A program made the translations under genes and the position numbers. A DNA stretch of 64,000 nt from Patescibacteria group bacterium (GTDB taxonomy: Bacteria; Patescibacteriota; WWE3; UBA101185; UBA10185). The stretch lies in the NCBI GenBank assembly GCA_018825365.1, contig JAHJEV010000003.1, forward strand, positions 238,619-302,618. The letters are read 5' to 3'. Under the pieces are notes generated by a model. That model worked only from the letters and a program-made list of their open reading frames with translations. It was not told the DNA's origin and searched no databases. Numbering within the stretch: position 1 is the stretch's first letter; each line of letters starts with the position of its first letter. Positions 24,537-42,588 of the stretch are shown piece by piece.

Positions 24537-25110
24537 TTTAAATGCTTTACAAGAATTACAGAAGTATAAAAAGGATTTCTATACTATTAGAGATCTACAA
24601 AATATATTTAATGTACCCGTAAAGTCTCTAAGGGTACAACTTTCAAGATGGTGCAAACGGGGAGTTTTTATTAGACTCACAAAGGGTATCTACACTCCCT
24701 ACAACACTGATATAGAAGTAGATAAGGTTGCTAATCAAATATATTATCCATCCTATTTATCTTTCGAAAGTGCTTTAAGCTATTACGGTATTTTAAGCCA
24801 AATTCCTTATACTTTAACTTTTGCTACACAAAAGAAGTCGAAGAAATTAGTATTAAAAGATACACAAATAGAATATACACAGTTAGCTAACAGGTTATTC
24901 TTTGGATATATTCTAGAAAACGGTATTTATTTAGCAACACCGGAAAAAGCTTTGATGGATACAATTTACCTAGTTTCAAAAGGTAACAGAACTTTGAATA
25001 TTAGTGAGTTATACCTAAAGAATATTGATAAAGAAAAATTCAAAGAGATTTCTTTAAAGTTCCCAAAGAACACTAAGGATATGGCTACAAGAATTATTGA
25101 AAATATCTAA
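24529..25110 (+). CDS. AbiEi-like antitoxin/transcriptional regulator (COG5340-type)
   Basis: It has an N-terminal wHTH (...LSRWCKRGVFIRLTKGIYT...) and a C-terminal SYLSFESALSYYGIL...ATPEKALMDTIYL region typical of AbiEi. It overlaps the NTase by 8 nt and lies downstream of it, which is the reversed order. Confidence 0.65.
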   Translation: MNNLNALQELQKYKKDFYTIRDLQNIFNVPVKSLRVQLSRWCKRGVFIRLTKGIYTPYNTDIEVDKVANQIYYPSYLSFESALSYYGILSQIPYTLTFATQKKSKKLVLKDTQIEYTQLANRLFFGYILENGIYLATPEKALMDTIYLVSKGNRTLNISELYLKNIDKEKFKEISLKFPKNTKDMATRIIENI

Positions 25111-25997: not shown

Positions 25998-27383
25998 CTA
26001 AAGGCACTTGGGACAGGCTTTGTCTAAAAGCTTTAGCTTAACCATAACTCTTCTCACATTAAACATAAATTCCGAGTCTTTAATTGACCAAAGCCAGGAT
26101 GTGTTTTTGTTACCCTGATCATAAGCGGCATGCCATATACCATCGAAGAAAAACATTCCAAATATCTGAACAAGAACAGAGAAAATTAAAGTTCCAATAA
26201 AAGCCTTTTTGTATTTTTTATAAATATCAGAATTTAAAAAAGGAACGATCAAAAGAATTAAATAAGGAATAACGTCCGAGCTCATTCTGTAACCAAATGA
26301 GTAACCTCCATACCAATGCTTCCATAAACTTATGATAAAGGTGTGAAAGATTACAATAAGGAAATAAACTAAATATTGGATATTTTCGTGCCAGCCTTTT
26401 CTCATAGCAATACAAAAGCCAATAATAGAAAACACAAAAATTGGAGAATAAACCAAAATACCTTTACTCGGAGACAACCAAACACCAATCAAACTCACCG
26501 GGAAGGGAGACACCCAACTTCCCAAAAGCTGGGTTGCATAACCTTGGTTTTGTATACCTACATAGTATTTGTTGTTATACCAAAGAAAAAATAATACGTT
26601 TAAAGCAAGTCCCACAAGAATACATAGGGCTGCCTTTGTAAAGATTTTTAAATTTGCTGATTTCATAAAAACCAATGTCACAATAAAAGCAAGGCCTAAT
26701 AGTGCTGTCGGACGGGAAAGGATTGCTAATCCGAAAAACAAACCCGACAGAAAAACGTCTGGAAGCTTCTTATCTTTGTCCATGCTGTTTAGGTAGTTAA
26801 GAATAAAGTAAAGGCCTAAGATTGAAAACATTTGAAGAGTCCCGTGTTGCCACATTGACTGAGAAACCATCGCAAAGTTTACCGTTCCAAAAATATAAGC
26901 GATTGTAAGAAGTAAAGATTTCTTCTCATCAAGAAAGTGCTTTTTGAGCAAGATATATAAGAACGTTCCGGAAGCCGAAACTATTAACATTGAGGAAATC
27001 TTTGATAAGAAAATCATATTTTCCCAAGTTACAGGCATACCAAGTTTTATCGGAAGATAAAATACCGGGAGAGATACTAAAGGAGTGATAATAGGAAAAG
27101 CTGAAAGATAGTGATTATTAACTTTTTCTAGGTAATACGGGGTTAGTCCCCTAAGTTGATTTTTGTCATCCGGTTGGGGATACCTTTGAATCATAGTATT
27201 GTAATAGGAATCCAGATACAGAGTCTTTTCCTTTATTATCGAGGCGGGAAGAAATAACGCAGGGACAGTATCTTCAGATTGGACAACAAGTCTGTTTATT
27301 CCTGTTTTATAAACGAATATCCAAGAAAAAAAGAGTACAAAAAAAGAAATAAAAAATAATTTTAGTGAAATATATTTTCCCAT
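25998..27383 (-). CDS. Polytopic membrane protein, putative GT-C-type glycosyltransferase
   Basis: A 461-aa protein with more than 10 predicted TM helices and an extracytoplasmic loop after TM1. No soluble catalytic motif was found. Confidence 0.4.
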   Translation of the reverse strand: MGKYISLKLFFISFFVLFFSWIFVYKTGINRLVVQSEDTVPALFLPASIIKEKTLYLDSYYNTMIQRYPQPDDKNQLRGLTPYYLEKVNNHYLSAFPIITPLVSLPVFYLPIKLGMPVTWENMIFLSKISSMLIVSASGTFLYILLKKHFLDEKKSLLLTIAYIFGTVNFAMVSQSMWQHGTLQMFSILGLYFILNYLNSMDKDKKLPDVFLSGLFFGLAILSRPTALLGLAFIVTLVFMKSANLKIFTKAALCILVGLALNVLFFLWYNNKYYVGIQNQGYATQLLGSWVSPFPVSLIGVWLSPSKGILVYSPIFVFSIIGFCIAMRKGWHENIQYLVYFLIVIFHTFIISLWKHWYGGYSFGYRMSSDVIPYLILLIVPFLNSDIYKKYKKAFIGTLIFSVLVQIFGMFFFDGIWHAAYDQGNKNTSWLWSIKDSEFMFNVRRVMVKLKLLDKACPKCL

Positions 27384-27456
27384 TGATTTAATAATACATT
27401 ACGGGGGCCATTTTGGAGATCATAAGAGTATTTTACTACCACTGCGTATGGAGAAA

Positions 27457-27729
27457 TTACTTATAATTTTCTAATAGTTTAATGTAGTAATCCTTAAAAT
27501 TCTCTGACCATTTCTCCGCGTATGTCTCGTTTTCAACCAAATTTCTAAGATCAATAAGTATATCTTTACCTCGTAAATTACTTATCTTTTTTGATAACTT
27601 CTCAAAAGCACTTTTTGTAGTATAAGACTCTGCGCCATCTTTTAGTAATTTTTCCTTGTTAGGAACAATTTTTCTGTTTCTGTATTCGGGATAGTTAACA
27701 TATTTTGTATACCATCTTAAATAGAACAA
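27457..27729 (-). CDS. Hypothetical small protein
   Basis: A 90-aa charged, K/E-rich protein with no recognisable motif. Confidence 0.3.
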   Translation of the reverse strand: MFYLRWYTKYVNYPEYRNRKIVPNKEKLLKDGAESYTTKSAFEKLSKKISNLRGKDILIDLRNLVENETYAEKWSENFKDYYIKLLENYK

Positions 27730-27870
27730 AACCTCAGGAGTTTTAGTTTCTATGAGCTACTGAGATAAGACAAAAGAATTTCTTACACCTTGTTTAGGCA
27801 TTACTATGAAATTGGGAGAAATTTATTAATTTGTGCAAAAGTACCACAGATTATCTATATTAACCCGTTT

Positions 27871-29556
27871 TTACCTAAATTTGTATAAAATCGCCGAATT
27901 CATCGTAACGGAACCCGCTTCTATAACCTGTAAAAATTTGAAGATCCTACGCTCGGATGGACCCTCCCCTTTGAAATCAATAATGTGCACAAGTTGGGGG
28001 CTATTCTCAAAAAAAACTGCGCTCTCGCTTTTGTCGACCATATAAAAATAAACCAAATACTTCGCACCCATGTATTGAGCTTCTTCCAGCCCAGAAGCGG
28101 TATTAAGAAGGTTTGTGAAATCTTCAGACACAAAACCCGTTGGTTTACTTTCATAAAATCGAGGATTTATTAGAGGTTGCTTATAAGCCGTCATCCAAAA
28201 AATAGCTTCGTTGGTTTTACTGTAGGGATATATAACCACAGGAGACTTTGAGAAGGCCGTTGTTCCAACGTATGAGTAAACTTCTGGTGGGGATCCAATA
28301 TGGGTTACTTTTAATGGGATAAAAAATTCAGAGACACTAAAAAGTGCCAGGATTACGAGAACAGATCGTATTACTAAAGGATTTATTTTCCTACTAGTCA
28401 ATAGATTTACCAACGCGCGGTAACCGTATCCGGTAAATATCAAAGTCAAAAACAAAATTAAAATACCCGCCCGTACCAAAACCCTAAACATCGGAAAAAT
28501 TTCAAACAGGATGTAACTTGGAGAATAAAACGTCATGTTTTTTAGGATAAACACTGGAGACATAGTTAAAAGTATGAGTGCGATGGTGGTTATTAAAAGT
28601 GCCGGGTAATTAATAGGTCTATCTCGTTTGGAACGAAATAACGAAAAAATCCCAACCAAAGCCAGGATCGTGTTTACCCAACCTAGATAAGAGGCGGAAT
28701 GTTCAGCTTTAAAATAGTTTTGTGTTAGATAATTTCCTCCGCTGGAGAGTTGATTTAAAAATTGTTTTGAAAGTTCACCGAAGAAAGGGTTGTCCACGGA
28801 GGGCAAAAGATAATACCAAGGCCGCGAGGAAAAGACTATGAAATCCTCAAAAGGCCTATTCAAAGCCTTACTGTCGGTATTTTCCTCTATCCGTGCTCTA
28901 GGCGCAAAAAAATTAGACTTTACGTAGGGTGCTAAAAATGTGGCTGAGAGAAAAATAAATACCACCAATGTTTTAACAATATCTCTCCAAGATTTTTTTA
29001 TAACGTTAATTTTTGACTCAGAAAAGATAAACTTAAACACCAAATAGATTGAGGTAAATAAAAGCGTAAAGTATCCGAGGTAGTTACTGATTCCAATAAT
29101 TAAGGTCAGTAAAAGTCCTAAAAATACAGCCTTGTGACGACTTTTAGAGAAAAAAAGAGTATCCAAAAACCAAATCACTGGCCAAAACTGCAGTAAGTCA
29201 ATATGCGAGCGACTCTGATAAGCTAAATAGGGACAACTTAGCAGTATCGTGGCTAGCAAAACTGCAACAAAGCGTCCAAAAATTTTCTTAAAAAAACGAA
29301 AAGCAAAAAAGAAATTTAGAGCCAGGCCGCCTAAAACTATAAGATTGTAAGCGAGTATGGGGTCGATCAATTTTGCGAGTAAAAAAACGGGAATAAAAAT
29401 TAAAGGTTGGTTATTGGCAAACAAATTTTGACAAATGCCAGTAGGATAACCTAAATAATCAGTGCAGCCCACTAAAACGTTGCTAATATGGCGGGGAATT
29501 GCAAAAAAACCCGCGTTGTCCTCTATAATGCCTATAAGATAGTTATTAAGAATCAT
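27871..29556 (-). CDS. Polytopic membrane protein, putative GT-C/YfhO-like glycosyltransferase
   Basis: A 561-aa protein with many TM helices in the first ~420 aa and a C-terminal extracytoplasmic domain. Confidence 0.4.
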   Translation of the reverse strand: MILNNYLIGIIEDNAGFFAIPRHISNVLVGCTDYLGYPTGICQNLFANNQPLIFIPVFLLAKLIDPILAYNLIVLGGLALNFFFAFRFFKKIFGRFVAVLLATILLSCPYLAYQSRSHIDLLQFWPVIWFLDTLFFSKSRHKAVFLGLLLTLIIGISNYLGYFTLLFTSIYLVFKFIFSESKINVIKKSWRDIVKTLVVFIFLSATFLAPYVKSNFFAPRARIEENTDSKALNRPFEDFIVFSSRPWYYLLPSVDNPFFGELSKQFLNQLSSGGNYLTQNYFKAEHSASYLGWVNTILALVGIFSLFRSKRDRPINYPALLITTIALILLTMSPVFILKNMTFYSPSYILFEIFPMFRVLVRAGILILFLTLIFTGYGYRALVNLLTSRKINPLVIRSVLVILALFSVSEFFIPLKVTHIGSPPEVYSYVGTTAFSKSPVVIYPYSKTNEAIFWMTAYKQPLINPRFYESKPTGFVSEDFTNLLNTASGLEEAQYMGAKYLVYFYMVDKSESAVFFENSPQLVHIIDFKGEGPSERRIFKFLQVIEAGSVTMNSAILYKFR

Positions 29557-29710: not shown

Positions 29711-30601
29711 TTAAATGTCATTCCCAATAGCTGAGTTAATTTTTATAACAGATGTGAGTTCTTTTATACTCATAAGAGGACAGTTCGCGATGTAATCTTC
29801 GTGTTTTTTCTCACCAGGTGAAGCTCCGATAGTCTCTATTGAAGAATATTTATTTCCTCTTACCTTCAGAAATGCCTGTGCCAGACTTTTTAGTTTAAAC
29901 TTTTTTGTATATTCCAAAGGGTAAAATATTTTACTACTGTCAGGATTAGTTGCTAATCCCACATCTACTAAAAACTTAGCGGCATCAGGAATATTAATAA
30001 AATACCTTGTCATTTCTGGATCAGTTATCTTTATTTTATTATCTTTTTTAAGCTGTTGTTCCCACAAAGGCAATACAGAACCCCTGGACCCTAAAAGATT
30101 TGGGCATCTAGCAATAATAAAAGTTGTGCCACTGTAAAGGTCAACACTCTCCTTCACAAGATACTCTGCAAGAAGTTTTGTAGCACCATAACAATTAGTA
30201 ACGTTTATTGCTTTATCTGATGAGACATATATCAAACGTTTAATAAGTTGGCTCGAATTCAGAATATTTAGAAGTCCGAGTATATTAACTCTGTGCGCTT
30301 CTCGAGGGTTTTGCTCTGCTAAAGATACATGCTTAATTGCGGCTGTATGGAATACAACATCGATGTCCTTCATTGCGTTAGCAATAAGTTCCTTATCAGC
30401 GATATCTCCTAGTTTAAACCTAACAAAACTGGAATTTATTTCATTTTCAGCTTCTTTTATTAGTCCTTCATCTCTGCTAATTGAAAGTATTTTCTCTGCC
30501 CCAAGATCCAAAAGTCTTTTGATAATATTTCTTCCTAACGAACCGCTCCCCCCAGTTATTAGAAATCTAGTATTTTTAATGGGTAACATTTTTTTATTCA
30601 T
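29711..30601 (-). CDS. NDP-sugar 4,6-dehydratase/epimerase, Polysacc_synt_2 (CapD/PseB-like)
   Basis: It has FLITGGSGSLGRNII..., ...FHTAAIKHVSLAEQNPREAHRVNILG... (compare PseB HAAALKQVP...NPMECIKTNI) and a YGATK YxxxK motif. Confidence 0.7.
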   Translation of the reverse strand: MNKKMLPIKNTRFLITGGSGSLGRNIIKRLLDLGAEKILSISRDEGLIKEAENEINSSFVRFKLGDIADKELIANAMKDIDVVFHTAAIKHVSLAEQNPREAHRVNILGLLNILNSSQLIKRLIYVSSDKAINVTNCYGATKLLAEYLVKESVDLYSGTTFIIARCPNLLGSRGSVLPLWEQQLKKDNKIKITDPEMTRYFINIPDAAKFLVDVGLATNPDSSKIFYPLEYTKKFKLKSLAQAFLKVRGNKYSSIETIGASPGEKKHEDYIANCPLMSIKELTSVIKINSAIGNDI

Positions 30602-30818: not shown

Positions 30819-31505
30819 ATGAAAGACATTTATAAAAATAAGTACACAAAAAGTAACGATTTGGAGTTAATCCATAGCACCAGAATTAAAGTAATGCGTG
30901 AAATGATTAAATGTTCGGGTATTGATACCGATAACTCTACGGTACTGGATTTCGGTTGTTATGATGGAACCTTTTTGAGTCTTTTAAGTCCCAATAAGAA
31001 AAATTTATTTGGTATTGAGGCGAGCGATTACGGGGTCAAGTCATGTAGAGAAAAGTCACTAAACGTAAAACAGTTTTATCTAGAAGATACAACAATCATA
31101 CCCTTTGATGACGCGACCTTTGACCTGCTTGTAGCCGGTGAGATTATTGAGCATATTTACGACACTGATCACTTACTTGAAGAATTTTACAGGGTACTAA
31201 AACAAAAAGGTAAGTTAATTATCTCCACGCCCAATATAAGTTCCCTAGGCCGAAGATTACTCCTTCTGGTGGGTAAAAACCCTATCATTGAACTGTCACC
31301 AAATGAAACTGATAGTAGCGGGCATATAAGATATTTCACTTTTAGTACGCTTACTGATTTATTAAAGAAACATTTCTTTAAGGTCGTTGATAAACGTTCC
31401 GACGTTGTAAACCTTTCAGGAGACGGCAAATTAAGGCTTACGACTCCCGCGAGACTTCTTCCCTCAATTGGTCAGAGCATAATTATTTTAGCTGTAAAAG
31501 ATTAG
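30819..31505 (+). CDS. Class I SAM-dependent methyltransferase
   Basis: It has motif I VLDFGCYDGTF and a post-I acidic residue (Methyltransf_11/23-like). Confidence 0.75.
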   Translation: MKDIYKNKYTKSNDLELIHSTRIKVMREMIKCSGIDTDNSTVLDFGCYDGTFLSLLSPNKKNLFGIEASDYGVKSCREKSLNVKQFYLEDTTIIPFDDATFDLLVAGEIIEHIYDTDHLLEEFYRVLKQKGKLIISTPNISSLGRRLLLLVGKNPIIELSPNETDSSGHIRYFTFSTLTDLLKKHFFKVVDKRSDVVNLSGDGKLRLTTPARLLPSIGQSIIILAVKD

Positions 31506-31530: not shown

Positions 31531-31818
31531 CTAATATTCCCGCCTAAGATAGAAAAACACTGTTACACATAGAAACAAATAAAAAAGTGCTGATGAGTTT
31601 AAGTAAATCTTCTCTATTCCAATAAGGGAGGCCAGTAGCGTTAAGCTTAAAAAAGCTGCTGAAAGTATAAGACTGATCCCCGGGGCAACTTTAAAGGACT
31701 TTACTGCAATAAACCAGGAAACCAGGATCAGAATGTAAGTCACTATATATAAATCTGGAAAAATATAAGAAAGTAACAAAGAGAGAATAAATACTGCAAT
31801 AAGAATTTTTCTTGTCAT
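31531..31818 (-). CDS. Small membrane protein (3 TM)
   Basis: A 95-aa protein with three hydrophobic helices. It overlaps the giant upstream gene by 4 nt (ATGA). Confidence 0.4.
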   Translation of the reverse strand: MTRKILIAVFILSLLLSYIFPDLYIVTYILILVSWFIAVKSFKVAPGISLILSAAFLSLTLLASLIGIEKIYLNSSALFYLFLCVTVFFYLRREY

Positions 31819-34800
31819 TTTAAACCTCTTCTTAACCGCCCTACAACAACAAATACAGTTAATACAAATGTGAAGATTACGGACAAAATGATTCCAAAAT
31901 ACAGAATTCTTTGCGGTGTGTACTCGATTATCAGGTAATAATTGTTTAAGTTATTTGTATCTTTCGGATCTATTTTCCAAACGTTAGCGTAACCATTAAC
32001 CATAAAATGGGATTTGTCTGCGATCGACGATAAATTCCAAGTGTCAAACATATTTTTATATAAAAACAAGTCCGAGTGAGTGCCCTCATTTACTTTTCCA
32101 CCAAAGTATGAAGCCTGACGGGAATTTAGTCCGGTGTAACCCACATTTGGAACGAAGTATATTTTCCAATTGCTATTGAAATTTTCACCAAAAACTAAAT
32201 CATACGGTTTTTGAGCGCCGACCACTTTAACAACATACTTCGTTTGGTTCACCCTTATGTAATCAATACTTGGAATGTCCTCTTCTGGTGTAACTACCAA
32301 TGGTACTTTCTCTCTCAAGATAATTTTAGGACGGATATACTGAGTAACAGAAATGTTTCTGATTTTAGAAACAGACGCATTATCCTTATAAGCGTTGGAA
32401 TAAAATGCGATAAATGCATTTTTAGTATCTTTACTAGCCTTTACGACTTGTTCAAAAGTTCTGTAGCAAGAGCCTTCCTCAATATACGAGCAAGTTGCGT
32501 CGCCTTCAATATTCACATCCTCCTTATCAGATTTCCCATTAAATTCCTTTGAGTATATATTTCTGTAACTAAATGGATACAAGTCGGTAGAAAAGCTCCC
32601 GGTGTTGGAAGCCTTTGCATAATCGGGAACCTCTTCAATTACAGCGACACCTAAATTGCCATTCGTTACAGAATAATTAAACTTTATTTTGTATTCCTTA
32701 GAAGACTCCCATTCTTTAAGAGGATTAACTGTAATGGGACGGTCATATGACGCACCCTTTTTTTCGGGAGTGAATAATGTGGAAACTATCGATTGTGATC
32801 TAAGATCCAAACCGTTTAAATTATTCGAACTTACAGATTCCCACTTCTTACTGTCAACCAAATTCTTAAAAGTAGGTAACGAAAAACCATATTTATACTC
32901 CTGATCGGTATTTAACTTAACTCTTCCTAAATTAACCCAATCATCCTTTTTATTTTCACTGCTAATTAATTTCGTTAGTGTCGTATCGTGGGCAGCCATA
33001 ACTATATCAAGTGACTCGGTATTAACACTATTTAAGATTCCCGTGGTATCCAAATATACATCATATTCGCCGGATTTTGGCATAGTAAATTTATAGCAAT
33101 ATTCGGCACAGTCCGGATTTCCTACCACGGTTATCCAATCTTTTAACTTATCGTAGGACTGTAAAACTTTTGCACGTTGCTGAGGGCTTACCGAGCTGGA
33201 TAAAACTGCATCCTTGGATTTACCTATATACACAAATGTTTTGCGGACGATACCCCAGAATGCAGGGGTATATTCAGTTTCAGGTATAGATGAGAGCATT
33301 TTTTTAATAGCGCCAAGCTCCTCTACGTAACTATTAATAATCGAGTCCTTATGAGAGGGGTCTAAATCGTATTTTAATAATTCGGCAGACCTCTTGGCGG
33401 ATAACCATACATATACATCAACTTTATCCAGAACCTCGGATTTTATATATATATCTTTGAGTTCGATTAATTTAACTGCGAGGTATTTTATGCTTACTGG
33501 TGAAGTGTTAGCTTCCGGCCAGGCCCACCCTTTGTTCCAAAACATCGTACTGGCAGATAGCTGACTGATCTGTTGTTGAGGTATTACAAAAAAGTCGCTT
33601 GCGGTGTTTTGAACATTTGATGGTATTTCGTGCTTTATTCTTTCATTCGGGTCAAGATAATACACTTGAGATCTCATATCGTAATTCTCAAAATCTACCA
33701 CATTGTGAATGTCGGCCAGACTTGACTGCACATACAAGACTTTATTAGGCACATATAACTTAGGTAGGTATTTTTCGAGAGGTACTTTGTACAAAGTGAA
33801 ATACCTGTTGTCGACTAGTTGTGTAAATGAATTAGTTGTATCAAATGTAGGAACACTCATAGAATCCTTTTGCAACAGGATATGGCTAGTATTGTTGAAG
33901 ATAAAAGAATTATACAAACCGGCTCCGTTTTGAATACCAGACTTATCCTCTATACTAAGGCCATACTCGTCTTGGCGTGCTACCAGCTCCTTTTTCGAAA
34001 TCCATGTCAAAAGATCAGCGCCCGAGTATCCCCACTTTTTACTAATATAACCGTTGGAAAGAGGCAGGAACATCACTTTTGAATCTGTCTTTATAGAATC
34101 TAAGGATTTTCCCATACTCCAATATTCGTTAGGTAGTTTATAGCCTTTGCGCTCAAAGTTGCTTGAGGAATAGTTAAAAAACTTGTGTCCGAAATAAATG
34201 GGGAAAAATATCACTAGATGAATAACTATTAAGATATTTAACAATGAGTTTCCTTTTTTATATTCGCTAATTTTCGTTGCTATTAAAGCAAGAGCAAGTG
34301 AGTAAAACATTGCCGCTCCTATTGCCACGTACGCGGTTGTTCTGAACATGCGGGCCTGAGGGATGTTTACTATTATAAGTCTATAGAGATCTCCAAAAGG
34401 CGGATTTGGTCCCTTTGCAATAAAAACTAACACTAACATTGCACTAAGTAGCAATAAAAATACCTTTCTTTTTTTATTATCCCTGTTGAAAAAATAAAAT
34501 CCGCTTAGCAGAAGTGCCTGAAGGAAAAAGGTCCAAATCACAAAATACCAACTGGTTAAATAATCATGGATACCTGGATAGATATTAATGATTGCACTAT
34601 TAAAAAACCGGATAATATAAAAAATTGAAGCGGTGTGAAGGTCAGCCGACCCTCCGTATGAAGAAAGGTTACTGGAAAATCCTCCCACAGCACCCCAGAA
34701 AATGCTGTAAGTAAAAGGGATAATGACCCACAGATTCAGGCCCACAGTAATTATAAATGCCTTCGACAGATCCAAAATGAGATTTCGTATTTTTGTTGGG

Positions 34801-35411
34801 TATAGGTGCTTGTATATAGCCAGTAAGAACATGGTTGATATAGAAAAAATTATGAGTTGCTTAAGCTGGGGAAGGTCTATAAAGAAAAAGAAGTTTACGC
34901 AAAGAGCAAAGAAAACAGCGTAGATTAGCTTTTTACTTTTTAAATACTTTATGAGAAGGAAGGAGCATATAGGAAATCCGTATAGCGGTAGATATGCGTC
35001 AACAACTAGATAGTAGATCGGGTTTAGGACATAAAAAGTGGCTGCGGCTAAAGCTCCCTTTCCCACATTGGCAACCGCATTAGTAAATAATTCTTTGAAT
35101 AGCAAATAGCTGAATACAAAACCAAGAATGATTAAAGTCAGGATGAGTATTTTATGGGCAATAAAACTGGGGACTCCGATAGACCCTAATATAAAATAAA
35201 ACAGGTACCAAAAAAAATGCGAAGAATTCTGAGACTCGCTTCCGGCATCCCACATAAAAGATTTATTCACGTTGTTTAAAGGGTTAAGAGGAAACATCAC
35301 ATCCCCACCAATGTAGTAATTCTTATCCATCATTGAACAGGCAAAAACTACCAAAGCCACGACAAAGGCTAATTCAATTGCATGGGTTTTTAGATAATTA
35401 ATTATTTTCAT
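31815..35411 (-). CDS. Giant membrane glycosyltransferase-like protein (AftD-like architecture)
   Basis: A 1198-aa protein. The first ~430 aa are polytopic (more than 10 TM). A ~700-aa extracytoplasmic Asn/Ser/Tyr-rich domain follows. A single C-terminal TM anchor (ILYFGIILSVIFTFVLTVFVVVG) is followed by RLRRGLK. Confidence 0.55.
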   Translation of the reverse strand: MKIINYLKTHAIELAFVVALVVFACSMMDKNYYIGGDVMFPLNPLNNVNKSFMWDAGSESQNSSHFFWYLFYFILGSIGVPSFIAHKILILTLIILGFVFSYLLFKELFTNAVANVGKGALAAATFYVLNPIYYLVVDAYLPLYGFPICSFLLIKYLKSKKLIYAVFFALCVNFFFFIDLPQLKQLIIFSISTMFLLAIYKHLYPTKIRNLILDLSKAFIITVGLNLWVIIPFTYSIFWGAVGGFSSNLSSYGGSADLHTASIFYIIRFFNSAIINIYPGIHDYLTSWYFVIWTFFLQALLLSGFYFFNRDNKKRKVFLLLLSAMLVLVFIAKGPNPPFGDLYRLIIVNIPQARMFRTTAYVAIGAAMFYSLALALIATKISEYKKGNSLLNILIVIHLVIFFPIYFGHKFFNYSSSNFERKGYKLPNEYWSMGKSLDSIKTDSKVMFLPLSNGYISKKWGYSGADLLTWISKKELVARQDEYGLSIEDKSGIQNGAGLYNSFIFNNTSHILLQKDSMSVPTFDTTNSFTQLVDNRYFTLYKVPLEKYLPKLYVPNKVLYVQSSLADIHNVVDFENYDMRSQVYYLDPNERIKHEIPSNVQNTASDFFVIPQQQISQLSASTMFWNKGWAWPEANTSPVSIKYLAVKLIELKDIYIKSEVLDKVDVYVWLSAKRSAELLKYDLDPSHKDSIINSYVEELGAIKKMLSSIPETEYTPAFWGIVRKTFVYIGKSKDAVLSSSVSPQQRAKVLQSYDKLKDWITVVGNPDCAEYCYKFTMPKSGEYDVYLDTTGILNSVNTESLDIVMAAHDTTLTKLISSENKKDDWVNLGRVKLNTDQEYKYGFSLPTFKNLVDSKKWESVSSNNLNGLDLRSQSIVSTLFTPEKKGASYDRPITVNPLKEWESSKEYKIKFNYSVTNGNLGVAVIEEVPDYAKASNTGSFSTDLYPFSYRNIYSKEFNGKSDKEDVNIEGDATCSYIEEGSCYRTFEQVVKASKDTKNAFIAFYSNAYKDNASVSKIRNISVTQYIRPKIILREKVPLVVTPEEDIPSIDYIRVNQTKYVVKVVGAQKPYDLVFGENFNSNWKIYFVPNVGYTGLNSRQASYFGGKVNEGTHSDLFLYKNMFDTWNLSSIADKSHFMVNGYANVWKIDPKDTNNLNNYYLIIEYTPQRILYFGIILSVIFTFVLTVFVVVGRLRRGLK

Positions 35412-35461
35412 ATGTCCCGATAATAGTTTTTTAACCTGTCTTGAAATTCACTTGCCATATT

Positions 35462-36592
35462 TTAATATCCAAAAGCTGAAAGTTCTATTGACGCGATAGT
35501 GTCCCATGAATATTTGTCTAACAGCACCATTCCTGCCCTATTTATAAAATCTCCACTTTTTAACAAACTCAATACTTTGGCTGCAGTTGCCATAGTATCA
35601 CCTTTCTTTACAAAATAAACCTCATCTTTAACATACAGCGGTTTATACGCATCCAAATCGTATGCAATACACTTAAGCCCACTGCAGACTGCCTCTAAAA
35701 GAGAGACCCCAAAGCTCTCATTAGGGCTTAAAAACAGGTATATTTTACTGCTTCCAATAATATCAAATTTCTCTCTTCCTGCTTTGAATCCAAGCATTAT
35801 TACATTTTTTTGCAAACCAAGTTCGTTTACTTTTTTCTGAAAAGAACTTTCGGAGGAATCGTCGCCCCTTCCCATCAAAGCTAGTAGAAAATCGGGGTAC
35901 TCTTTTTTTACAATAAGCAGTACTTTAAGCAAGTCATAAACCCCCTTGGTTTCATTAATTCTACCAACAAACAGGGCGTCATATTTATACACACCCCGGG
36001 GTTTTGTCTCTTTAATCAGCTCTACTTCCACAGCACAACCAGTTATATGAATAACACCTTTCTTAAAACCTCTGTCTAACATAAAATTGTTTAGGTCTTG
36101 GGTGATTACAAAAATAGCATCAGCCTTTTTTAATAAAAGTAAGCTCATTTCAAAAAAAATATAGGCCAGAAGCTTAATATATTTATTACCAGGCTCTTTA
36201 TATGACACTGTGTTATCAAAATTCACGCCCCATATAAACTTTTCCCCGAATATTTTAAGAAGATATGGAATAAGAAGAAGATCTAAAACCGCTGACAAAG
36301 AATATATAACATCAAAACTTGATTGCCTAATTAGCTTTATATATTTTAGAGCAAACAAATTGCGCTTCATGAATTCGAATATTAGCACTATCCGATTAGT
36401 CGGGTTTACAGCGTTATCGATAGTGTAGTAGGTAATATTTCCTAAATTCTTTTCGTATGCCTGTTTGGCGTCCTTGGTGCACAGCATGTGTATATCGCAA
36501 CCGTTTTTCTGCCAATAACGAATCTTTGAAATTACCGGTACCCGATTATTTCCTACTATAAAACTTAAATCATTTATCAGTATTTTTTTCAT
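35462..36592 (-). CDS. Glycosyltransferase family 4
   Basis: It has the NESFGVSLLEAVCSGLKCIAYD motif. Confidence 0.7.
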   Translation of the reverse strand: MKKILINDLSFIVGNNRVPVISKIRYWQKNGCDIHMLCTKDAKQAYEKNLGNITYYTIDNAVNPTNRIVLIFEFMKRNLFALKYIKLIRQSSFDVIYSLSAVLDLLLIPYLLKIFGEKFIWGVNFDNTVSYKEPGNKYIKLLAYIFFEMSLLLLKKADAIFVITQDLNNFMLDRGFKKGVIHITGCAVEVELIKETKPRGVYKYDALFVGRINETKGVYDLLKVLLIVKKEYPDFLLALMGRGDDSSESSFQKKVNELGLQKNVIMLGFKAGREKFDIIGSSKIYLFLSPNESFGVSLLEAVCSGLKCIAYDLDAYKPLYVKDEVYFVKKGDTMATAAKVLSLLKSGDFINRAGMVLLDKYSWDTIASIELSAFGY

Positions 36593-37755
36593 AATAAATT
36601 TTTAAAGATTGTATCAAACTCTGCGGCTGAAATCTCCCACGAGTACTTCTTTGAGTTCGTTAAACCTTTTTGAATTAGATCGTTACGTAACACATCGTTT
36701 GTAAGCATTTTATTCATGCACTCAGCGATCTGATCGGCTTCTTGAGCATTAGCCAAAAGGGCCGCGTCACCGCATATTTCTATAAGACTGGAGTTATCTG
36801 AGGTAATAACAGGGCAGCTATTTTGCATCGCCTCAAGTATAGGGAGCCCAAACCCCTCATAATAAGGACAGTAAACAAGACATACCGCTTTAGCGTATAA
36901 AACCTTAAGTTCCAAGGCGCTTATATAACGGTCGGTTAACACTACCTGATTGGAGTTTAAACCGAATGAATTCACAGAACGATTGATAATACTTTCCATT
37001 TCTCTGTTGTTAACTACAACCACCAGTTTTAGATCTCCGTTTATTTTCGCAACCTTTGAAAATGCCTCAATGGTTTTTTCAACATTTTTTCTTTTGGAAG
37101 TTCCCATGGTCAGAAAATATTTAGTGTTTTCGGTCAGACATAACCCTTTTAATATCTCTCTTCCTCTCTTGTCTGGGATTACGCCTGATTTTAAATCCCG
37201 ATCTATTCCTAAGTGAACGACCTTGACCATAGATTCATCAATTTTAAACAATTTTAATAAATCGTTTTTGGTGCAATTTGAAATAGTAACGATGCTATCT
37301 GCGCGTTTAAGGCTGGTCTTTAGATATATATCGTAATAGGTTTTGAGTGTAAGGGTTGTGGTCTTTGGAACAATAAATGTACACAAATCTAAAACTCCAA
37401 CAATGTGAGGAACTTTTCTATTTTTAAAAAATGGAAGTATGTCAACAGGGCTGAAATATAAATCGTACTTTTTTATATATTTATTAATAAAGAAAATATC
37501 GAATAAAACTCCGAAGATGTTGTTATTAAACCCCCAAGCACTCACCAAATGAACATTTTTATAAGACAAAAGGTCGTTTATATAGGTATTAGAGTTATCG
37601 TAATTAACTACAATTATGTAGAAATCAAAATCCCGGGATTGGCTTACCAGTGCACGAAGTAAGTTGTAAACATAGCTTTGAACCCCTGTGTAAGGTTGTT
37701 GCAGCAGGCGTAGATTTATAAGAATCTTCTTTTTCATTTTTGTGAAACCATCCAA
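36589..37755 (-). CDS. Glycosyltransferase family 4
   Basis: It has the YEGFGLPILEAMQNSCPVITSD motif. Confidence 0.8.
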   Translation of the reverse strand: MDGFTKMKKKILINLRLLQQPYTGVQSYVYNLLRALVSQSRDFDFYIIVVNYDNSNTYINDLLSYKNVHLVSAWGFNNNIFGVLFDIFFINKYIKKYDLYFSPVDILPFFKNRKVPHIVGVLDLCTFIVPKTTTLTLKTYYDIYLKTSLKRADSIVTISNCTKNDLLKLFKIDESMVKVVHLGIDRDLKSGVIPDKRGREILKGLCLTENTKYFLTMGTSKRKNVEKTIEAFSKVAKINGDLKLVVVVNNREMESIINRSVNSFGLNSNQVVLTDRYISALELKVLYAKAVCLVYCPYYEGFGLPILEAMQNSCPVITSDNSSLIEICGDAALLANAQEADQIAECMNKMLTNDVLRNDLIQKGLTNSKKYSWEISAAEFDTIFKNLL

Positions 37756-38336
37756 AGTTGTCCGCCCAGACCCAGGTTGTTCACAAAAAGCTGTACAACT
37801 TTTGGAAGAGGGTGAAAGGGAGCAGTGGCTTTGACAACTTTAAATCCGGCAACCTCCAAGATAAACTCCAGTGACTTTGAAGTAAATAAGTATTTGTGCG
37901 TTTTATCCCCATACCCGTGCCATGATTTTCCAGATAAAAATCTGCCCAAAGAGTTTAAATTAGGGGTAGTTAGTAATAACTTACCGTTAGGTTTTAAAAT
38001 ACGTCGGCATTCCCGTAAAAACCCCACTGGGCTTTCCAAATGTTCTATCACATCAAATGCTGAAATAAAACTAAACGTATCGTTTGCAAAAATTCCCAGT
38101 CCCTTATCACAGTCATGCTTGGTAAGTTGGGCTTTAGTTACTTTTTTTGCTTCATCAAGATATTCCTCAGATATGTCAATTCCCCAAGTCTTTAAACCAA
38201 AATCGTCACAGCATTTTAAGAACGAGCCTGTAGCGCAGCCTATATCTAACACCGAGGAACCCTTTGCAATCCCTTCTTTTATAATCGCTTCGGGAAAATA
38301 TATTTTATTTATTAATGTTTCAGACTTTATTATCAT
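37734..38336 (-). CDS. Class I SAM-dependent methyltransferase
   Basis: It has motif I VLDIGCATGSF and a 200-aa size. Confidence 0.75.
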   Translation of the reverse strand: MIIKSETLINKIYFPEAIIKEGIAKGSSVLDIGCATGSFLKCCDDFGLKTWGIDISEEYLDEAKKVTKAQLTKHDCDKGLGIFANDTFSFISAFDVIEHLESPVGFLRECRRILKPNGKLLLTTPNLNSLGRFLSGKSWHGYGDKTHKYLFTSKSLEFILEVAGFKVVKATAPFHPLPKVVQLFVNNLGLGGQLWMVSQK

Positions 38337-38337
38337 C

Positions 38338-39063
38338 TTATTTCTTCTTGGCCTGTAAATAAAACCTTGTCGGGATGGTCTGATTTGACACTAAACCCTC
38401 AAATATTTTCTTGTACATCCACACCGAGGTTTTATATTGGCGGTGAAATATGTGTTTATAGATATACAAAATTAGCATATCTATATCCCAGTAAATATTT
38501 CCTATCAAGTCAAGCTTTGTTAATTTAAAACCACCTTCCTCAAGCATACTCAGCATCTGCTTTTTTGAGTAATGGCGATGGCCAAGAAACCAGGCAGGGT
38601 CTATAAAATTAAAAATGTGGCTGTACATAGTACTTAAGACTAAACTACCGTCAGGTTTTAAAAGTTCACCAAGCGTTTTAAGCACTGCAGTCTCTGTGTC
38701 CTGTGGTACGTGCTCAATAACATCAAGAATAAATACAGTATCAAAGAAGTTTTTATATTTTTCCAAAAATACCTTCGGAGGGTTTATGAGATCCAACTCC
38801 TGAAAAGTATACTCAGGGAAGTTCCTCCTGGCGGTGGCTAACGCGTCCTTATTAATATCACTTCCAACTAATTCACATTTAATACCCTCTTTTTTTATCT
38901 CCCCTTCCAAAGTGCCCGTCCAGCACCCTGCATCAAGCACCTTTTTCCCCTCTATGTCCTTCTTGAATGTTTTCACAACATGTTCATGTTGATAGTTAGT
39001 CCTAATACAGGCATCGTTTAGGTTTTGAAATTCCATTTGTCCGTTGTAAAAGAAAGATCTCAT
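38338..39063 (-). CDS. Class I SAM-dependent methyltransferase
   Basis: It has motif I VLDAGCWTGTL and a 241-aa size. Confidence 0.75.
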   Translation of the reverse strand: MRSFFYNGQMEFQNLNDACIRTNYQHEHVVKTFKKDIEGKKVLDAGCWTGTLEGEIKKEGIKCELVGSDINKDALATARRNFPEYTFQELDLINPPKVFLEKYKNFFDTVFILDVIEHVPQDTETAVLKTLGELLKPDGSLVLSTMYSHIFNFIDPAWFLGHRHYSKKQMLSMLEEGGFKLTKLDLIGNIYWDIDMLILYIYKHIFHRQYKTSVWMYKKIFEGLVSNQTIPTRFYLQAKKK

Positions 39064-39064
39064 T

Positions 39065-40246
39065 TTATAAACTCCTTTCGGTAAATAGTGTTTTATACAA
39101 ACTGTAGTAGCTTTCTGCCGTAGCTTGCGGCGTTCTGGATTGCGCTTTTATACTAACATTTTTCTCAATCTCTGCCACTAACTGCGGGTTATCTACAATA
39201 TACTCAAACGCCTTGTCCCACTTGTCGTTTTCAACCAATATACCGGTTTTGTTGTCATCAATATCCTCCAAAAAATGCCCGATGTTTGAAGTAAGCACAC
39301 ACTTATGGTAGCTATTTGAATGGAAAAGCGGACCGCTGGATCCCATGGATAAAATTGCAGGGATTACCACCGCAGAAGCGTGAGTATACAAATCATCCTG
39401 CATCTCTTGCTTGATAAAGCCTTTTATTTCCACTTTATTTTCAAGCCTGTACTTTTTTACCATTTCTTTAATTTCTTCAAACGCCTGTTCCTGGCCTTCA
39501 ATAACACCGCCAGCCAGGATAAATTTAAAATCCGACATGGGGTGCTTGTCACTAAACTTCTTGAAACCCTCAAGCGCAAAACCCAAACCTTTTCTTCTTA
39601 CCATATAACCAAAATAGAAAAAGTAATGGTCATTAGTTGCGTTTGACATGTCACGCTTCGGGATGGCGGTTGGAATGACCTGAATCTTTTTGGCAGGGGC
39701 ACCGTAGTCCTGGGTTAAAATTTGTTTTGTAAGGTTTGTATGAACAATATTAAAGTTTGAAAAGTTGGTTACTGTAAAATAGACATAACTAAAAAAAGCT
39801 TTTACCAAAAAGGGGCTTATTTTATCCGGATCGTACCCAAAGGTTTCGATAAATTTTGTGTTGACCTGCTTTTTATACACCGTTGCATGTACTGTTGTTA
39901 CAACTTTAAAGCCCATGATTCTTGCCGTCAGTATTAGAAAGGGAAACATTACTGCCGTAATTTGACCGCCATACATATTTAACTCGTGTTGAAAATGCAC
40001 AATGTTTGGTTTGTCTATGCGTAACTGTTTGAGAATTTCAAAAAAAAACCTCCAGCTCTTAGACCAAACAGGCTTAATAGTTCCACAACCGGCAATGTCC
40101 AGATTTTCCTGTCTTTTGTCTGTATAAACTACTAATTCGATGTTGGGATTTAAGGCTAACCCTGACGTTATATACTGCGAATAATGCCCATTGGGAAGCA
40201 TTCCCGATACGAAGACAACTTTGAGTTTTTTGCTAGTTATAGCCAC
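39065..40246 (-). CDS. Glycosyltransferase (GT4-like, divergent)
   Basis: It has a GT-B-like two-domain layout with a degenerate EX7E region. Confidence 0.5.
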   Translation of the reverse strand: MAITSKKLKVVFVSGMLPNGHYSQYITSGLALNPNIELVVYTDKRQENLDIAGCGTIKPVWSKSWRFFFEILKQLRIDKPNIVHFQHELNMYGGQITAVMFPFLILTARIMGFKVVTTVHATVYKKQVNTKFIETFGYDPDKISPFLVKAFFSYVYFTVTNFSNFNIVHTNLTKQILTQDYGAPAKKIQVIPTAIPKRDMSNATNDHYFFYFGYMVRRKGLGFALEGFKKFSDKHPMSDFKFILAGGVIEGQEQAFEEIKEMVKKYRLENKVEIKGFIKQEMQDDLYTHASAVVIPAILSMGSSGPLFHSNSYHKCVLTSNIGHFLEDIDDNKTGILVENDKWDKAFEYIVDNPQLVAEIEKNVSIKAQSRTPQATAESYYSLYKTLFTERSL

Positions 40247-40257
40247 TTTTGCAACAG

Positions 40258-42588
40258 TTAAATAATTTCAAATTTCGGTAAAGGGAAAACTAAGTGCCCA
40301 CCTTGTTTTAAATAATCCTTTTCCTTTTCAATTATGGTATCCCTAAAATGCCAAGGCAGGACAAAAAGATAATCCGGCTTTAATTTTCTAGCCTCAGATT
40401 CAGGGATAATTGGTATTCGTGTACCCGGAGTAGTTCTACCGTATTTATATTCGTTGACTTCCGCGATAGCTGGTAGTAGTTCGTAATTAATATCGAAATA
40501 CTGTAATAAAACATTTCCTTTAGTGGAAGCGCCGTAACCAAAAATCTTTTTGTTTTCAGATTTTATTTTTCGCAAAAATCCAATAACATCCATTTTAGTT
40601 TTATCTATATTCTCTTTAAATTCATCAAATACTTTGCTGGTCGAAAACAACTTATTTTCTTTTGCTAACGCTCGTGCGAGTTTAGGTCCGCAGTCTTTAT
40701 AGATAGAATCTTTTTTAGCAATTACCAAGATAAAACTCCCCCCGTTGGTATCGTTAAAATCCAAATCAACAATTTTTAAATGAGCTTTATCACACATCCA
40801 AAGAATTTGTTTTAAACCGTAGTACTCCACATGTTCGTGACAAATGGTATCAAAGGATCTCTGTTTTAACATTTCAGGAAAATAGCTCTGTTCCGTAACC
40901 CAAATTCCTTCTTTATCATCTAATACGCTTGCAATGGATTTTACAAATTTTAGTGGTTCAAGAAGGTCATAAAACATGGCGATTGTTGTAACAATTTTAG
41001 CTTTTTTAGACGTAAACCCTTTTACAACCTGAGCGCTAAAGAATTTTGAAATATATTTAACGTAGCGTGGATAATATTCTTTAAACTTTTTGGCAGTTGG
41101 ATCTATACCCAAAAGTAGATATCCCTTATCCCCATATAAACTTAATAGCGTCCCATCGTTGCTACCAATATCTACAATTAAATCCCCTTTCTCCAGTTTC
41201 ACTAGTTTTGTTAGTTTCTCCACTATCCCACTAAGATGCGTTACCATGGATTTATTAAGTCCTGATCTATAACCATAATTGTCGCCGTAAAGTTCGGTAA
41301 GATCGTAATCATGTGCAAGCTGTGTTAGGCCGCAACCCTCTCCGTTTCGATCGTCGCATTTTACTAACGCAAGTGGGCCTACAGTTACCCGCTCACTTGG
41401 TAATGGGAAAACTCCGGTAAGACTTTGATTTCCTAAACTGATAATTTCATATAGTTTTTTGTTTCCGCAGATCCTGCAACTATCAATCCTTTTGCAAGTT
41501 ACGTCGCTTTCATTTTTACGATTGGCCCCACTTAGTTCTCTTTGGACATCGTTAATATCTTCTTTGATCATTATGTTTACTAATTCAGAAAAACTTGTGC
41601 GTGGTTTCCAGCCAAGTAGCTTTTTTGCTTTAGTGGCATCCCCGAGCAATTGCTCTACTTCCGCAGGTCTAAAAAAAGCCGGATCTACTTCAACAAGTGT
41701 TTTTCCGGTATTAGTTTCGATACCCTTCTCCCCGACACCTTTTCCTACCCACTTAATGTTTATACCTACACGCTTAAAAGACTCTTCACAAAAATCTCGC
41801 ACCGTGTGGTTTTTTCCCATAGCAATCACGAAATCCTGCGGTTCTTTCTGCTGTAGCATTAGCCACATAGCCTCTACGTAATCTTTTGCGTAACCCCAGT
41901 CTCTTTGGGCACCTAAATTACCTAGCACAAGTTTATCCTGTAGCCCATACTTTATTCGGGCAACAGACTTGGTGATTTTCTTTGTTACAAAAAGATCTCC
42001 ACGTCTGGGAGATTCGTGATTAAAAAGAATTCCGTTTACACAAAACAGATTGAAAGATTCTCTGTAGTTTATTGTAATCCAGTATGCATAGAGCTTCGCC
42101 ACTCCATAGGGAGATCTGGGATGAAATGGAGTATTTTCGTTTTGGGGCGTTTCTCTAACCTTTCCAAAAAGTTCAGATGTTGACGCCTGATAGAACTTAC
42201 ATTTGGGAACTATAGTTTTCATTGCCTCCAAAAGGCGTAATGTACCCAAAGCATTGACTTCTCCTGTAAGTTCCGGCTCTTGAAAGGATATATGTACTTG
42301 AGACTGTGCCGCTAGGTTATATATCTCATCAGGTTTTATACTTTCGATTATTCTATGAATATTAGCTGAGTCGGTTAGATCGCCATATAGCAGGTGTACC
42401 CGTTTAATAATAATTTCAGGAAGGTTGATAAGATGGTTTATTCTCTCTGTATTAGAAACGGAGCTGGATCTTTGTATCCCATAAACCTCATACCCCTTAT
42501 GGAGCAAAAACTCCGCTAAATATGAGCCGTCTTGTCCGGTTATTCCTGTGATAAGAGCTTTTTTCATAACTAGGGCATTATATAACAT
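40258..42588 (-). CDS. gmd: Bifunctional GDP-mannose 4,6-dehydratase / NDP-hexose C-methyltransferase (TylC3-like) fusion
   Basis: The N-terminal ~350 aa is canonical Gmd ([19 protein letters not shown]..., YNLAAQSHV-like, [12 protein letters not shown]). The C-terminal ~410 aa has the Zn-ribbon C-x4-C-x2-C...C-x7-C, a class I MT fold ([12 protein letters not shown]) and a C-terminal domain as in the TylC3/NovU/CloU sugar C3-methyltransferases. Confidence 0.75.

Follow-up and report, generated by a model that had tools for sequence, protein, structure and literature searches.

AftD, an alpha-(1->3)-arabinofuranosyltransferase of Mycobacterium (PDB entries 6W98, 6WBX and 6WBY), is an essential enzyme of the mycobacterial cell wall and a candidate drug target. 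Its chain comprises 11 GT-C helices, an alpha/beta domain on the outside of the membrane, a twelfth transmembrane (TM) helix and a bundle of four helices, TM13-16, to which acyl carrier protein (ACP) binds; K39, D41, E251, K361 and D474 are essential, R357 is invariant and lies in the enzyme-specific loop EL5, and homologues have been described as confined to Actinobacteria (bioRxiv 10.1101/2019.12.22.885152). Here we describe a gene pair from a bacterium of the candidate phyla radiation (CPR) that lies in a window of 64 kb, by which we mean the whole stretch of DNA analysed (64,000 nucleotides; positions 238,619 to 302,618 of contig JAHJEV010000003.1, assembly GCA_018825365.1, Patescibacteria group bacterium). 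The larger gene encodes a protein of 1198 residues and the smaller a membrane protein of 95 residues:

31815..35411, minus strand: AftD-like GT-C glycosyltransferase gene (3597-nt open reading frame (ORF), ATG start, 1198 residues)
31531..31818, minus strand: gene for the small membrane partner of 95 residues (NCBI hypothetical protein KKC62_02380; ORF, ATGA overlap)

The evidence supports the 1198-residue protein as a member of a divergent branch of the AftD/PF11847 superfamily in a CPR bacterium. We further consider it likely, with a probability of about 70%, that this protein is an active GT-C transferase which moves a sugar from polyprenyl phosphate onto a surface polysaccharide, with the small protein as its membrane subunit. 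Among known systems AftD is the closest. Both proteins combine an N-terminal GT-C domain, an alpha/beta outside domain, beta-sandwiches of the carbohydrate-binding module (CBM) type, a final conserved beta-sandwich and one TM helix that re-enters the membrane, and in each there is a conserved acid in outside loop 1, with a register uncertain by two residues between the two chains, and an arginine conserved in the proline-rich loop that joins helices 9 and 10. They differ in several respects: the TM13-16 bundle is absent from the target, which therefore has no ACP-binding site in its polypeptide, and a separate protein with four TM segments is encoded downstream; the insert consists of a five-helix bundle and two beta-sandwiches where AftD has three CBMs; the host is a low-GC CPR bacterium instead of an actinobacterium; and the gene stands within a conserved cassette that also contains GDP-deoxyhexose, methyltransferase and GT4 genes. 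The relationship does not imply arabinofuranosyl specificity, and no arabinose-pathway, arabinan or decaprenyl-phospho-arabinose genes were seen in the 64-kb window. The kind of enzyme, an AftD-type GT-C protein, is already known; what is new relative to AftD is the CPR setting, the large unannotated family, the missing ACP-binding bundle, the partner encoded in trans and the different insert.

Sequence relationship to PF11847 and AftD

A search with the 1198-residue sequence alone retrieved 24 homologues, and a profile of this query and 18 close homologues (A1, 19 sequences) retrieved about 10,700 cluster representatives at E<=1e-3, some 2,300 of them at E<=1e-30; with relatives in such numbers the ORF can be taken as a real gene. 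Its exact match at NCBI is the hypothetical protein KKC62_02385 (Patescibacteria group bacterium), encoded on a 460-kb contig, and all family records that we looked up are likewise 'hypothetical' or nameless. It is the largest ORF of the window, as an earlier note made from the DNA sequence had stated for the locus, the second largest having 949 codons, and a search of the window for a paralogue found none. Two faint library matches, Golvesin_C (Pfam, E 1e-3) and MmpA (NCBIfam, E 2e-3), were rejected as identities of the protein, both being noise far below cut-off.

The genome scan places family members in CPR bacteria and, with lower similarity, also in Chloroflexi and in DPANN and Bathyarchaeota archaea, so that the locus extends the AftD-related superfamily to these groups; a literature search on DUF3367 and on GT-C enzymes in Patescibacteria returned nothing relevant outside mycobacteria. 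Close homologues are also present in metagenome-assembled genomes labelled 'uncultured Pseudomonadales' or 'Gammaproteobacteria' (loci L004, L005, L006, L008, L012 and L017). Those of L004 and L005 are 37-38% identical to the CPR-type target, and the taxonomic labels of these assemblies look doubtful.

The link to the AftD family comes from profile comparisons with PF11847 (GT-C_AftD, formerly DUF3367), whose gathering cut-off is 26 bits. The A1 profile retrieved two PF11847-bearing proteins, P0022 and P0028, at E 8.5e-42 and 9.6e-34, and re-scanning with PF11847 scored them at 32.3 and 39.7 bits, with 252.6 bits for P0031 and 85.5 for P0141. The last of these matches the A1 profile from end to end (287 bits), and BLASTP aligns it with the query over residues 35-568 (E 5e-11), GGD motif on GGD motif, and again over residues 1047-1197 (E 6e-12). 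When A1 was compared by hhalign with a set of six PF11847-matching proteins, five above the cut-off and one below, the probability was 100% and the E-value 1.6e-72 over 851 columns.

A second profile of 30 sequences, bridging members included (A2), matched AftD 6W98 in the PDB at E 9.3e-16 in three collinear stretches. The first, in the membrane domain, pairs 18-242 with AftD 21-243; the second, in the alpha/beta domain outside the membrane, pairs 431-528 with AftD 438-542; the third, in the last beta-sandwich, pairs 701-777 with AftD 1194-1256 (VNGYANGW facing VNGWQQGW) and is weak, with an i-Evalue of 1.1e3 that is not significant alone. In the hidden Markov model (HMM) alignment the chain numbering of 6W98 is the native numbering plus 3. 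Sequence identity between the query and AftD is about 10%, and we conclude from the profiles that the 1198-residue protein is homologous to PF11847 members and to AftD.

Fold of the full-length model

The AlphaFold2 model of the 1198-residue protein, computed from the 30-sequence alignment, has a mean predicted local distance difference test score (pLDDT) of 79.8 and a predicted TM-score (pTM) of 0.76. In a Foldseek search of the PDB with this model the AftD entries hold ranks 1-3 (E 1.1e-14 to 1.3e-12), with about 1500 aligned columns and a TM-score of 0.42/0.38. The next tier consists of yeast and human STT3 and of AglB (E 1.9e-5 to 1.2e-4), followed further down by ArnT (E 2e-3) and AftA (E 4e-3). 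Judged from the model, the N-terminal membrane domain has a GT-C fold and AftD is its closest PDB structure. The earlier note had proposed an AftD-type architecture, and this proposal is supported both by the PF11847 profile links and by 6W98 as the top structural match. ArnT and other PMT_2-type enzymes, AftA and Emb also share the GT-C fold with the target, and all of them presumably use a lipid-phosphate sugar as donor; the target differs in having no PMT_2 (PF13231) or ArnT HMM match and a far larger soluble region.

The second structural tier bears on an alternative in which the protein works like an oligosaccharyltransferase or a polymerase/ligase, moving a lipid-pyrophosphate oligosaccharide, built by the neighbouring GT4 enzymes and flipped by a Wzx-like protein, en bloc onto a protein or polymer instead of adding single sugars. 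STT3, AglB and PglB have a GT-C membrane fold and an outside alpha/beta domain like the target, STT3 and AglB are its second-best structural matches, the conserved gene cassette described below is rich in GT4 genes and lacks its own synthase for polyprenyl-phosphate monosaccharides, and the window encodes a Bac_transf priming enzyme and three Wzx-like flippases. However, the fold match to AftD is nine orders of magnitude better than that to STT3, the sequence profiles point to PF11847 and not to STT3, and the 1198-residue sequence contains no WW dipeptide and hence no WWDxG motif of the STT3/PglB/AglB enzymes. The target also departs from these enzymes in its terminal TM helix and its long CBM-like insert, and the CBM-like modules suggest a glycan rather than a peptide as acceptor. 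We regard en-bloc transfer as improbable.

Membrane domain and conserved residues

The following features were assigned in the N-terminal part of the protein:

34182..35411, minus strand: membrane GT-C domain, residues 1-410 (hydropathy, AlphaFold model, A2 alignment, BLASTP against P0141)
35301..35303, minus strand: Asp37 codon, GGD motif of the first extracytoplasmic loop, candidate catalytic or metal-binding acid (conservation)
34335..34415, minus strand: outside loop K333-T359 with the signature AKGPNPPFG...FRTT, candidate phosphate-binding loop (conservation)

The order of DSSP helices in the model and the positive-inside rule, with basic loops at 155-161, 200-217, 308-316 and 383-388, fit a membrane domain of 11 TM helices with juxtamembrane helices in the first outside loop. 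The seventh predicted helix is long and is followed by a large outside loop; helices 9 and 10 are joined by another outside loop, rich in proline. ORF, hydropathy and AlphaFold model together confirm the giant protein of 1198 residues that the earlier note had described, with its polytopic N-terminus and a C-terminal TM helix followed by basic residues.

Residue conservation was counted over 163 family proteins, or fewer where a sequence was unaligned. Position 37 is D or E in 146 of the 150 aligned proteins (97%), and W54 is conserved in 156 of 157. In the HMM alignment D37 of the query stands on AftD K39, which is flanked by AftD D37 and D41. The second conserved site is the loop K333-T359, which corresponds in position to EL5 of AftD: its KGPNPPFG segment is near-invariant across the family, R or K occupies position 357 in 161 of 163 proteins (99%), and P338 and G334 are found in 152 and 144 proteins, respectively.

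Extracytoplasmic region and its variable insert

Hydropathy and the AlphaFold model show a soluble region at residues ~411-1165, predicted to lie outside the membrane; its length of about 755 residues is close to the ~700 that had been estimated from the sequence. In the model the mixed alpha/beta fold spans about 420-615 and the beta-sandwich modules run from 771 to 1164. The region and the helix that follows it divide as follows:

33522..34181, minus strand: mixed alpha/beta extracytoplasmic domain of the GT-C super-domain, residues ~411-630 (DSSP of the model, AftD alignment)
33117..33506, minus strand: five-helix bundle insert, residues ~636-765 (DSSP helices 643-763)
32328..33116, minus strand: two CBM-like beta-sandwich modules, residues ~766-1028, part of the long-form insert (soluble-region model, Foldseek)
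31917..32327, minus strand: conserved C-terminal beta-sandwich, residues ~1029-1165 (conservation, BLASTP against P0141)
31815..31916, minus strand: C-terminal TM helix, residues 1166-1194, and stop codon (hydropathy, AlphaFold model)

The mixed alpha/beta domain carries the conserved motifs IP.EY and LP..GY..K.W.Y.G. The C-terminal beta-sandwich is marked by KINPTKY, LVFSE.F..WK.Y and H..VNGYAN.W, and four of its residues are invariant or almost so where aligned (H1135 in 93 of 94 proteins, N1143 and W1145 in 94 of 94, W1082 in 92 of 93). The single C-terminal TM helix, the counterpart of AftD TM12, is found at the end of nearly all of the best 150 family representatives; in the query the chain stops four residues after it, and the basic cytoplasmic tail reads RLRRGLK.

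Residues 636-1165 were modelled separately (pLDDT 72). Foldseek matches of this model include Vip3Aa (E 5e-7), the multi-beta-sandwich GH101 protein EngBF (E 7.5e-6) and Cry toxins, together with a series of carbohydrate-binding modules: CBM4 3k4z (E 2.3e-4), CBM16 2zey (TMt 0.50, root-mean-square deviation 3.8 A, 138 columns), the porphyran-binding CBM 8xmz (TMt 0.53) and the CBM of the endo-arabinanase EndoMA1. These matches to CBM4, CBM16, the porphyran CBM and the CBM-type sandwiches of GH101 and Vip3A bear out the beta-sandwich folds that the earlier note had suggested looking for in the soluble domain. Among the Foldseek matches of the insert model none has a protease or hydrolase catalytic fold, and since the membrane domain shows the GT-C fold and the soluble region no such fold, the AftD interpretation stands. 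The modelled insert is a five-helix bundle with CBM-like beta-sandwiches, for which glycan binding is predicted.

Family members fall into a short class of ~700-830 residues and a long class of ~1100-1260 residues, to which the query belongs. In the short forms the alpha/beta domain runs almost straight into the last beta-sandwich and the C-terminal TM helix, whereas in the long forms about 450 residues, comprising the helical bundle and two beta-sandwiches, are inserted there; the bundle region was found missing from short-form homologues of ~730-790 residues. Because the two classes differ at this point, the conserved core can be defined as the GT-C super-domain plus a single beta-sandwich and a single TM helix, with an exchangeable insert that is predicted to bind glycans. 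AftD follows the same logic of core plus insert, its insert being the three CBMs.

The size of this soluble region, with its several CBM-like modules, could also suit an inactive scaffold or molecular ruler that binds the polymer and organises the other GT-C enzymes of the locus; several further GT-C enzymes are encoded nearby, and related loci contain tandem paralogues. This possibility appears extremely remote, as the positions expected to be catalytic in a GT-C enzyme, namely D/E37, R/K357 and the KGPNPPFG loop, are the most conserved of all, and purifying selection on membrane-loop residues would be hard to explain in a pure scaffold.

The small membrane partner

The 95-residue ORF begins within the end of the large gene, the two overlapping by 4 nt at the stop codon (aaaATGAcaag), and a Shine-Dalgarno-like GAAGAGG motif lies just upstream. 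From the sequence of this ATGA junction we consider the small ORF to be translationally coupled to the large gene. A promoter and terminator scan of 30.5-36.7 kb gave sites no commoner than in shuffled sequence, a null result that is compatible with an operon but uninformative. The earlier note had described the overlap correctly and had counted three TM segments in the product; hydropathy and an alignment of nine homologues instead reveal four hydrophobic segments. In the partner family basic residues at both termini and in the second loop predict an N-in/C-in topology, and the nine proteins share an AE.(F/L)(S/A)VW.(F/Y)L motif ahead of the last hydrophobic segment.

A small ORF is located directly 3' of the large gene in every long-form locus examined and also after the 888-residue form of L010, in all 9 loci, which strengthens the idea, raised in the earlier note, of a small partner subunit. 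In the other eight loci the partners measure 99-130 residues and the spacing ranges from -41 to +4 nt (-8 to +4 in seven of the eight):

window: 95 residues, -4 nt
L001: 106 residues, -4 nt
L002: 115 residues, -4 nt
L006: 126 residues, -8 nt
L016: 111 residues, -8 nt
L021: 113 residues, +3 nt
L022: 130 residues, overlapping
L023: 112 residues, +1 nt
L010: 99 residues, +4 nt

No such ORF follows the short forms of L003-L005 or the more distant relatives of L019 and L020. The 106-residue ORF of L001 (13642-13962) was not called in the source assembly, where it leaves an 'intergenic' gap of 320 nt, so that such partners are probably under-annotated.

In the GtrA/GtrB/Gtr* and ArnC/ArnE-F/ArnT systems a GT-C transferase likewise goes together with a small membrane protein of four helices, namely the flippase for the lipid-linked sugar (GtrA, ArnE/ArnF), and with a GT2 enzyme that makes the lipid-phosphate sugar. 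By analogy the target could be a decorating enzyme of the GtrABC, YfhO or ArnT type, adding single side-chain sugars to a finished wall polymer while the four-TM partner flips the lipid-linked sugar. The tight coupling of a GT-C enzyme to a small four-TM protein agrees with this, as do two GT2 proteins of the window whose best matches are of the AglJ, PgfS, ArnC and PpgS type. But the partner bears no similarity to GtrA or SMR-type proteins, and Pfam at E<=10 gave no GtrA (PF04138) or SMR/EamA-type match for any of the nine homologues, returning only scattered chance matches to single members. The target itself has no YfhO (PF09586) or PMT_2 match, although six other proteins of the window match PMT_2; the GT2 matches are all far under the curated cut-offs, and the conserved cassette contains no GT2 gene. 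We consider a decorator with a flippase partner very unlikely.

Another way to view the partner starts from AftD. The predicted helices add up, 11 + 1 + 4, to the 16 of AftD with the same N-in/C-in orientation, and on topology alone it is attractive to regard the locus as a 'split AftD' in which the separate four-helix protein is the counterpart of the TM13-16 bundle. We hold this equivalence to be doubtful, and equally speculative is the evolutionary corollary that the module which in mycobacteria binds ACP and regulates AftD began as a free small subunit, remains separate in CPR bacteria and was fused to the enzyme in Actinobacteria. A comparison of the partner with the PDB found no similar chain, AftD included, and a partner profile search returned 35 stand-alone proteins of 95-130 residues, with no fusions among the matches listed. 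The one possible exception is the PF11847 member P0141, from a JGI metagenome, in which residues 1060-1137 form two extra C-terminal TM helices past the usual last helix; they carry a partner-like motif, IAEGLAVWAYLSLATG, and fit the second half of the partner profile at 13.7 bits. None of 2000 shuffled tails reached this score, and reversed sequences reached 12.5 bits, for which reason we treat the match as no more than a weak hint of a possible partial partner fusion in P0141. The conserved partner could in any case illuminate the origin or the role of AftD's unusual C-terminal bundle. TmaT, known from the TmaT-AftD complex, was discarded as an analogue, being an unrelated acyltransferase with 10 TM helices.

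Proposed mechanism

From the homology, fold, residue conservation and gene pairing described above we infer the following scheme. On the outer side of the membrane the 11-helix domain would take up a sugar linked to polyprenyl phosphate; there Asp37 in the first outside loop could serve as the catalytic or metal-binding acid and Arg357 and Lys333, in the KGPNPPFG...FRTT loop, would grip the phosphate. The sugar would then be passed to a polymeric surface glycan held by the alpha/beta domain and the CBM-like beta-sandwiches, with the C-terminal helix anchoring the soluble part back in the membrane. The enzyme would have the co-translated four-TM protein as a membrane subunit, and its acceptor and donor sugars probably derive from the conserved cassette, which is predicted to supply a methylated GDP-6-deoxyhexose and GT4 enzymes.

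Several observations weigh against this reading of an active, AftD-like transferase. The searches with the DUF3367/PF11847, YfhO and PMT_2 models that the earlier note had proposed do not detect the 1198-residue protein directly, and a Pfam scan at E<=0.01 returned none of PF11847, YfhO, PMT_2 or STT3. With the A1 profile AftD was the best match among PDB sequences but a marginal one (E 0.013), and the match became significant because bridging sequences were added in A2. As D37 aligns on AftD K39, its register relative to the essential D41 has an uncertainty of two residues. With a sub-profile of residues 236-425, the EL4/EL5 region, AftD was not matched, which leaves the equivalence of D257, K333 and R357 with AftD E251, K361 and R357 unproven. 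Two further acids are partly conserved: D257 is present in 83 of 163 family proteins, and D466, on which E475 of the conserved AftD acids D474/E475 falls in the HMM alignment (with AftD W469-G470 on W460-G461), in only 56 of 163. Finally, the conserved ten-gene cassette contains no polyprenyl-phosphate sugar synthase; the GT2 candidates for this function lie 10-22 kb from the cassette, and none was seen in the 22 kb of L001.

Genomic neighbourhood

In the 64-kb window almost every gene from about 4.5 kb onward belongs to glycan synthesis. The genes closest to the pair are:

35462..42588, minus strand: upstream cassette with two GT4 enzymes, two S-adenosylmethionine (SAM) methyltransferases, one GT4 enzyme and a Gmd-C-methyltransferase fusion (Pfam and NCBIfam)
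30819-31505, plus strand: SAM methyltransferase, adjoining the 95-residue/1198-residue gene pair
29711-30601: PseB-like short-chain dehydrogenase/reductase, adjoining the target and partner region
25998..29556, minus strand: two polytopic membrane proteins of 561 and 461 residues, downstream (conserved neighbourhood)

The PseB-like dehydratase and the methyltransferase had been named as neighbours in the earlier note and were found there. Gene order from the Gmd/C-methyltransferase fusion through to the small partner (31531-42588, ten genes) is the same in L001, whose target homologue, P0002, is 38% identical to the 1198-residue protein. The 561-residue protein is 31% identical to the product of the 535-codon gene after P0002 in L001 and has no match in any library. 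The 461-residue protein is 51% identical to a PMT_2 gene product of L001; it has no Pfam match and a weak one to the LA_3751/LA_3752 putative glycosyltransferases of Leptospira. The relationship to AftD thus offers a functional handle on the largest gene of a conserved surface-glycan cassette, in organisms with almost uncharacterised envelopes.

The fusion protein (40258-42588, minus strand, 776 residues) joins a GDP-mannose 4,6-dehydratase (TIGR01472, 531 bits) to a TylC3-type C-methyltransferase (Methyltransf_13/14); in L001 dehydratase and C-methyltransferase are on separate genes. Adjoining it is a B12-binding radical-SAM enzyme (42616-44220, minus strand) whose best match is HpnJ, and the two together suggest a C-methylated 6-deoxyhexose in the glycan.

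Related loci also show how family genes can be grouped. In a subfamily of about 28% identity they form tandem trios (L002 7876-15701, L021 1079-9876, L022 2145-10697) around the long-form gene with its small partner, in which the upstream genes encode proteins of 710-971 residues (A1 HMM, E 1e-209 to 1e-254) and the downstream genes proteins of 655-703 residues (E 1e-19 to 1e-25). As the flanking genes are themselves family members, several AftD-like enzymes probably act side by side in these loci. In mycobacteria the Aft and Emb enzymes work side by side.

Other glycan genes of the window, besides the Bac_transf priming enzyme, encode a DUF4012 protein, rhamnose-pathway enzymes, many GT4 enzymes, a UDP-glucose dehydrogenase, the three Wzx-like flippases and DUF2079 and LPG_synthase_TM proteins. 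The two GT2 proteins have polyprenyl-phosphate sugar synthases (AglJ, PgfS, ArnC, PpgS) as their best matches, far below the curated cut-offs. The six PMT_2-type GT-C proteins include an unusual fusion of 949 residues (17239-20088, minus strand) that combines Wzy_C of the O-antigen-ligase/polymerase type (residues 224-379) with a PMT/PMT_2 GT-C domain (466-688). Three further PMT_2-type genes stand in tandem, with a fourth further on (47306-52054 and 57250-58869, minus strand), and this stretch also has the DUF2079 protein, the LPG_synthase_TM protein and two of the Wzx-like flippases. Counting the target, the 949-residue fusion and the 461-residue protein, at least eight GT-C-type or related membrane transferases are encoded in 64 kb. 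The minus-strand run of glycan genes is broken at 23829-25110 (plus strand) by a pair consisting of an AbiEii toxin and an AbiEi-like antitoxin, which coincides with the stretch of lowest GC content (0.32).

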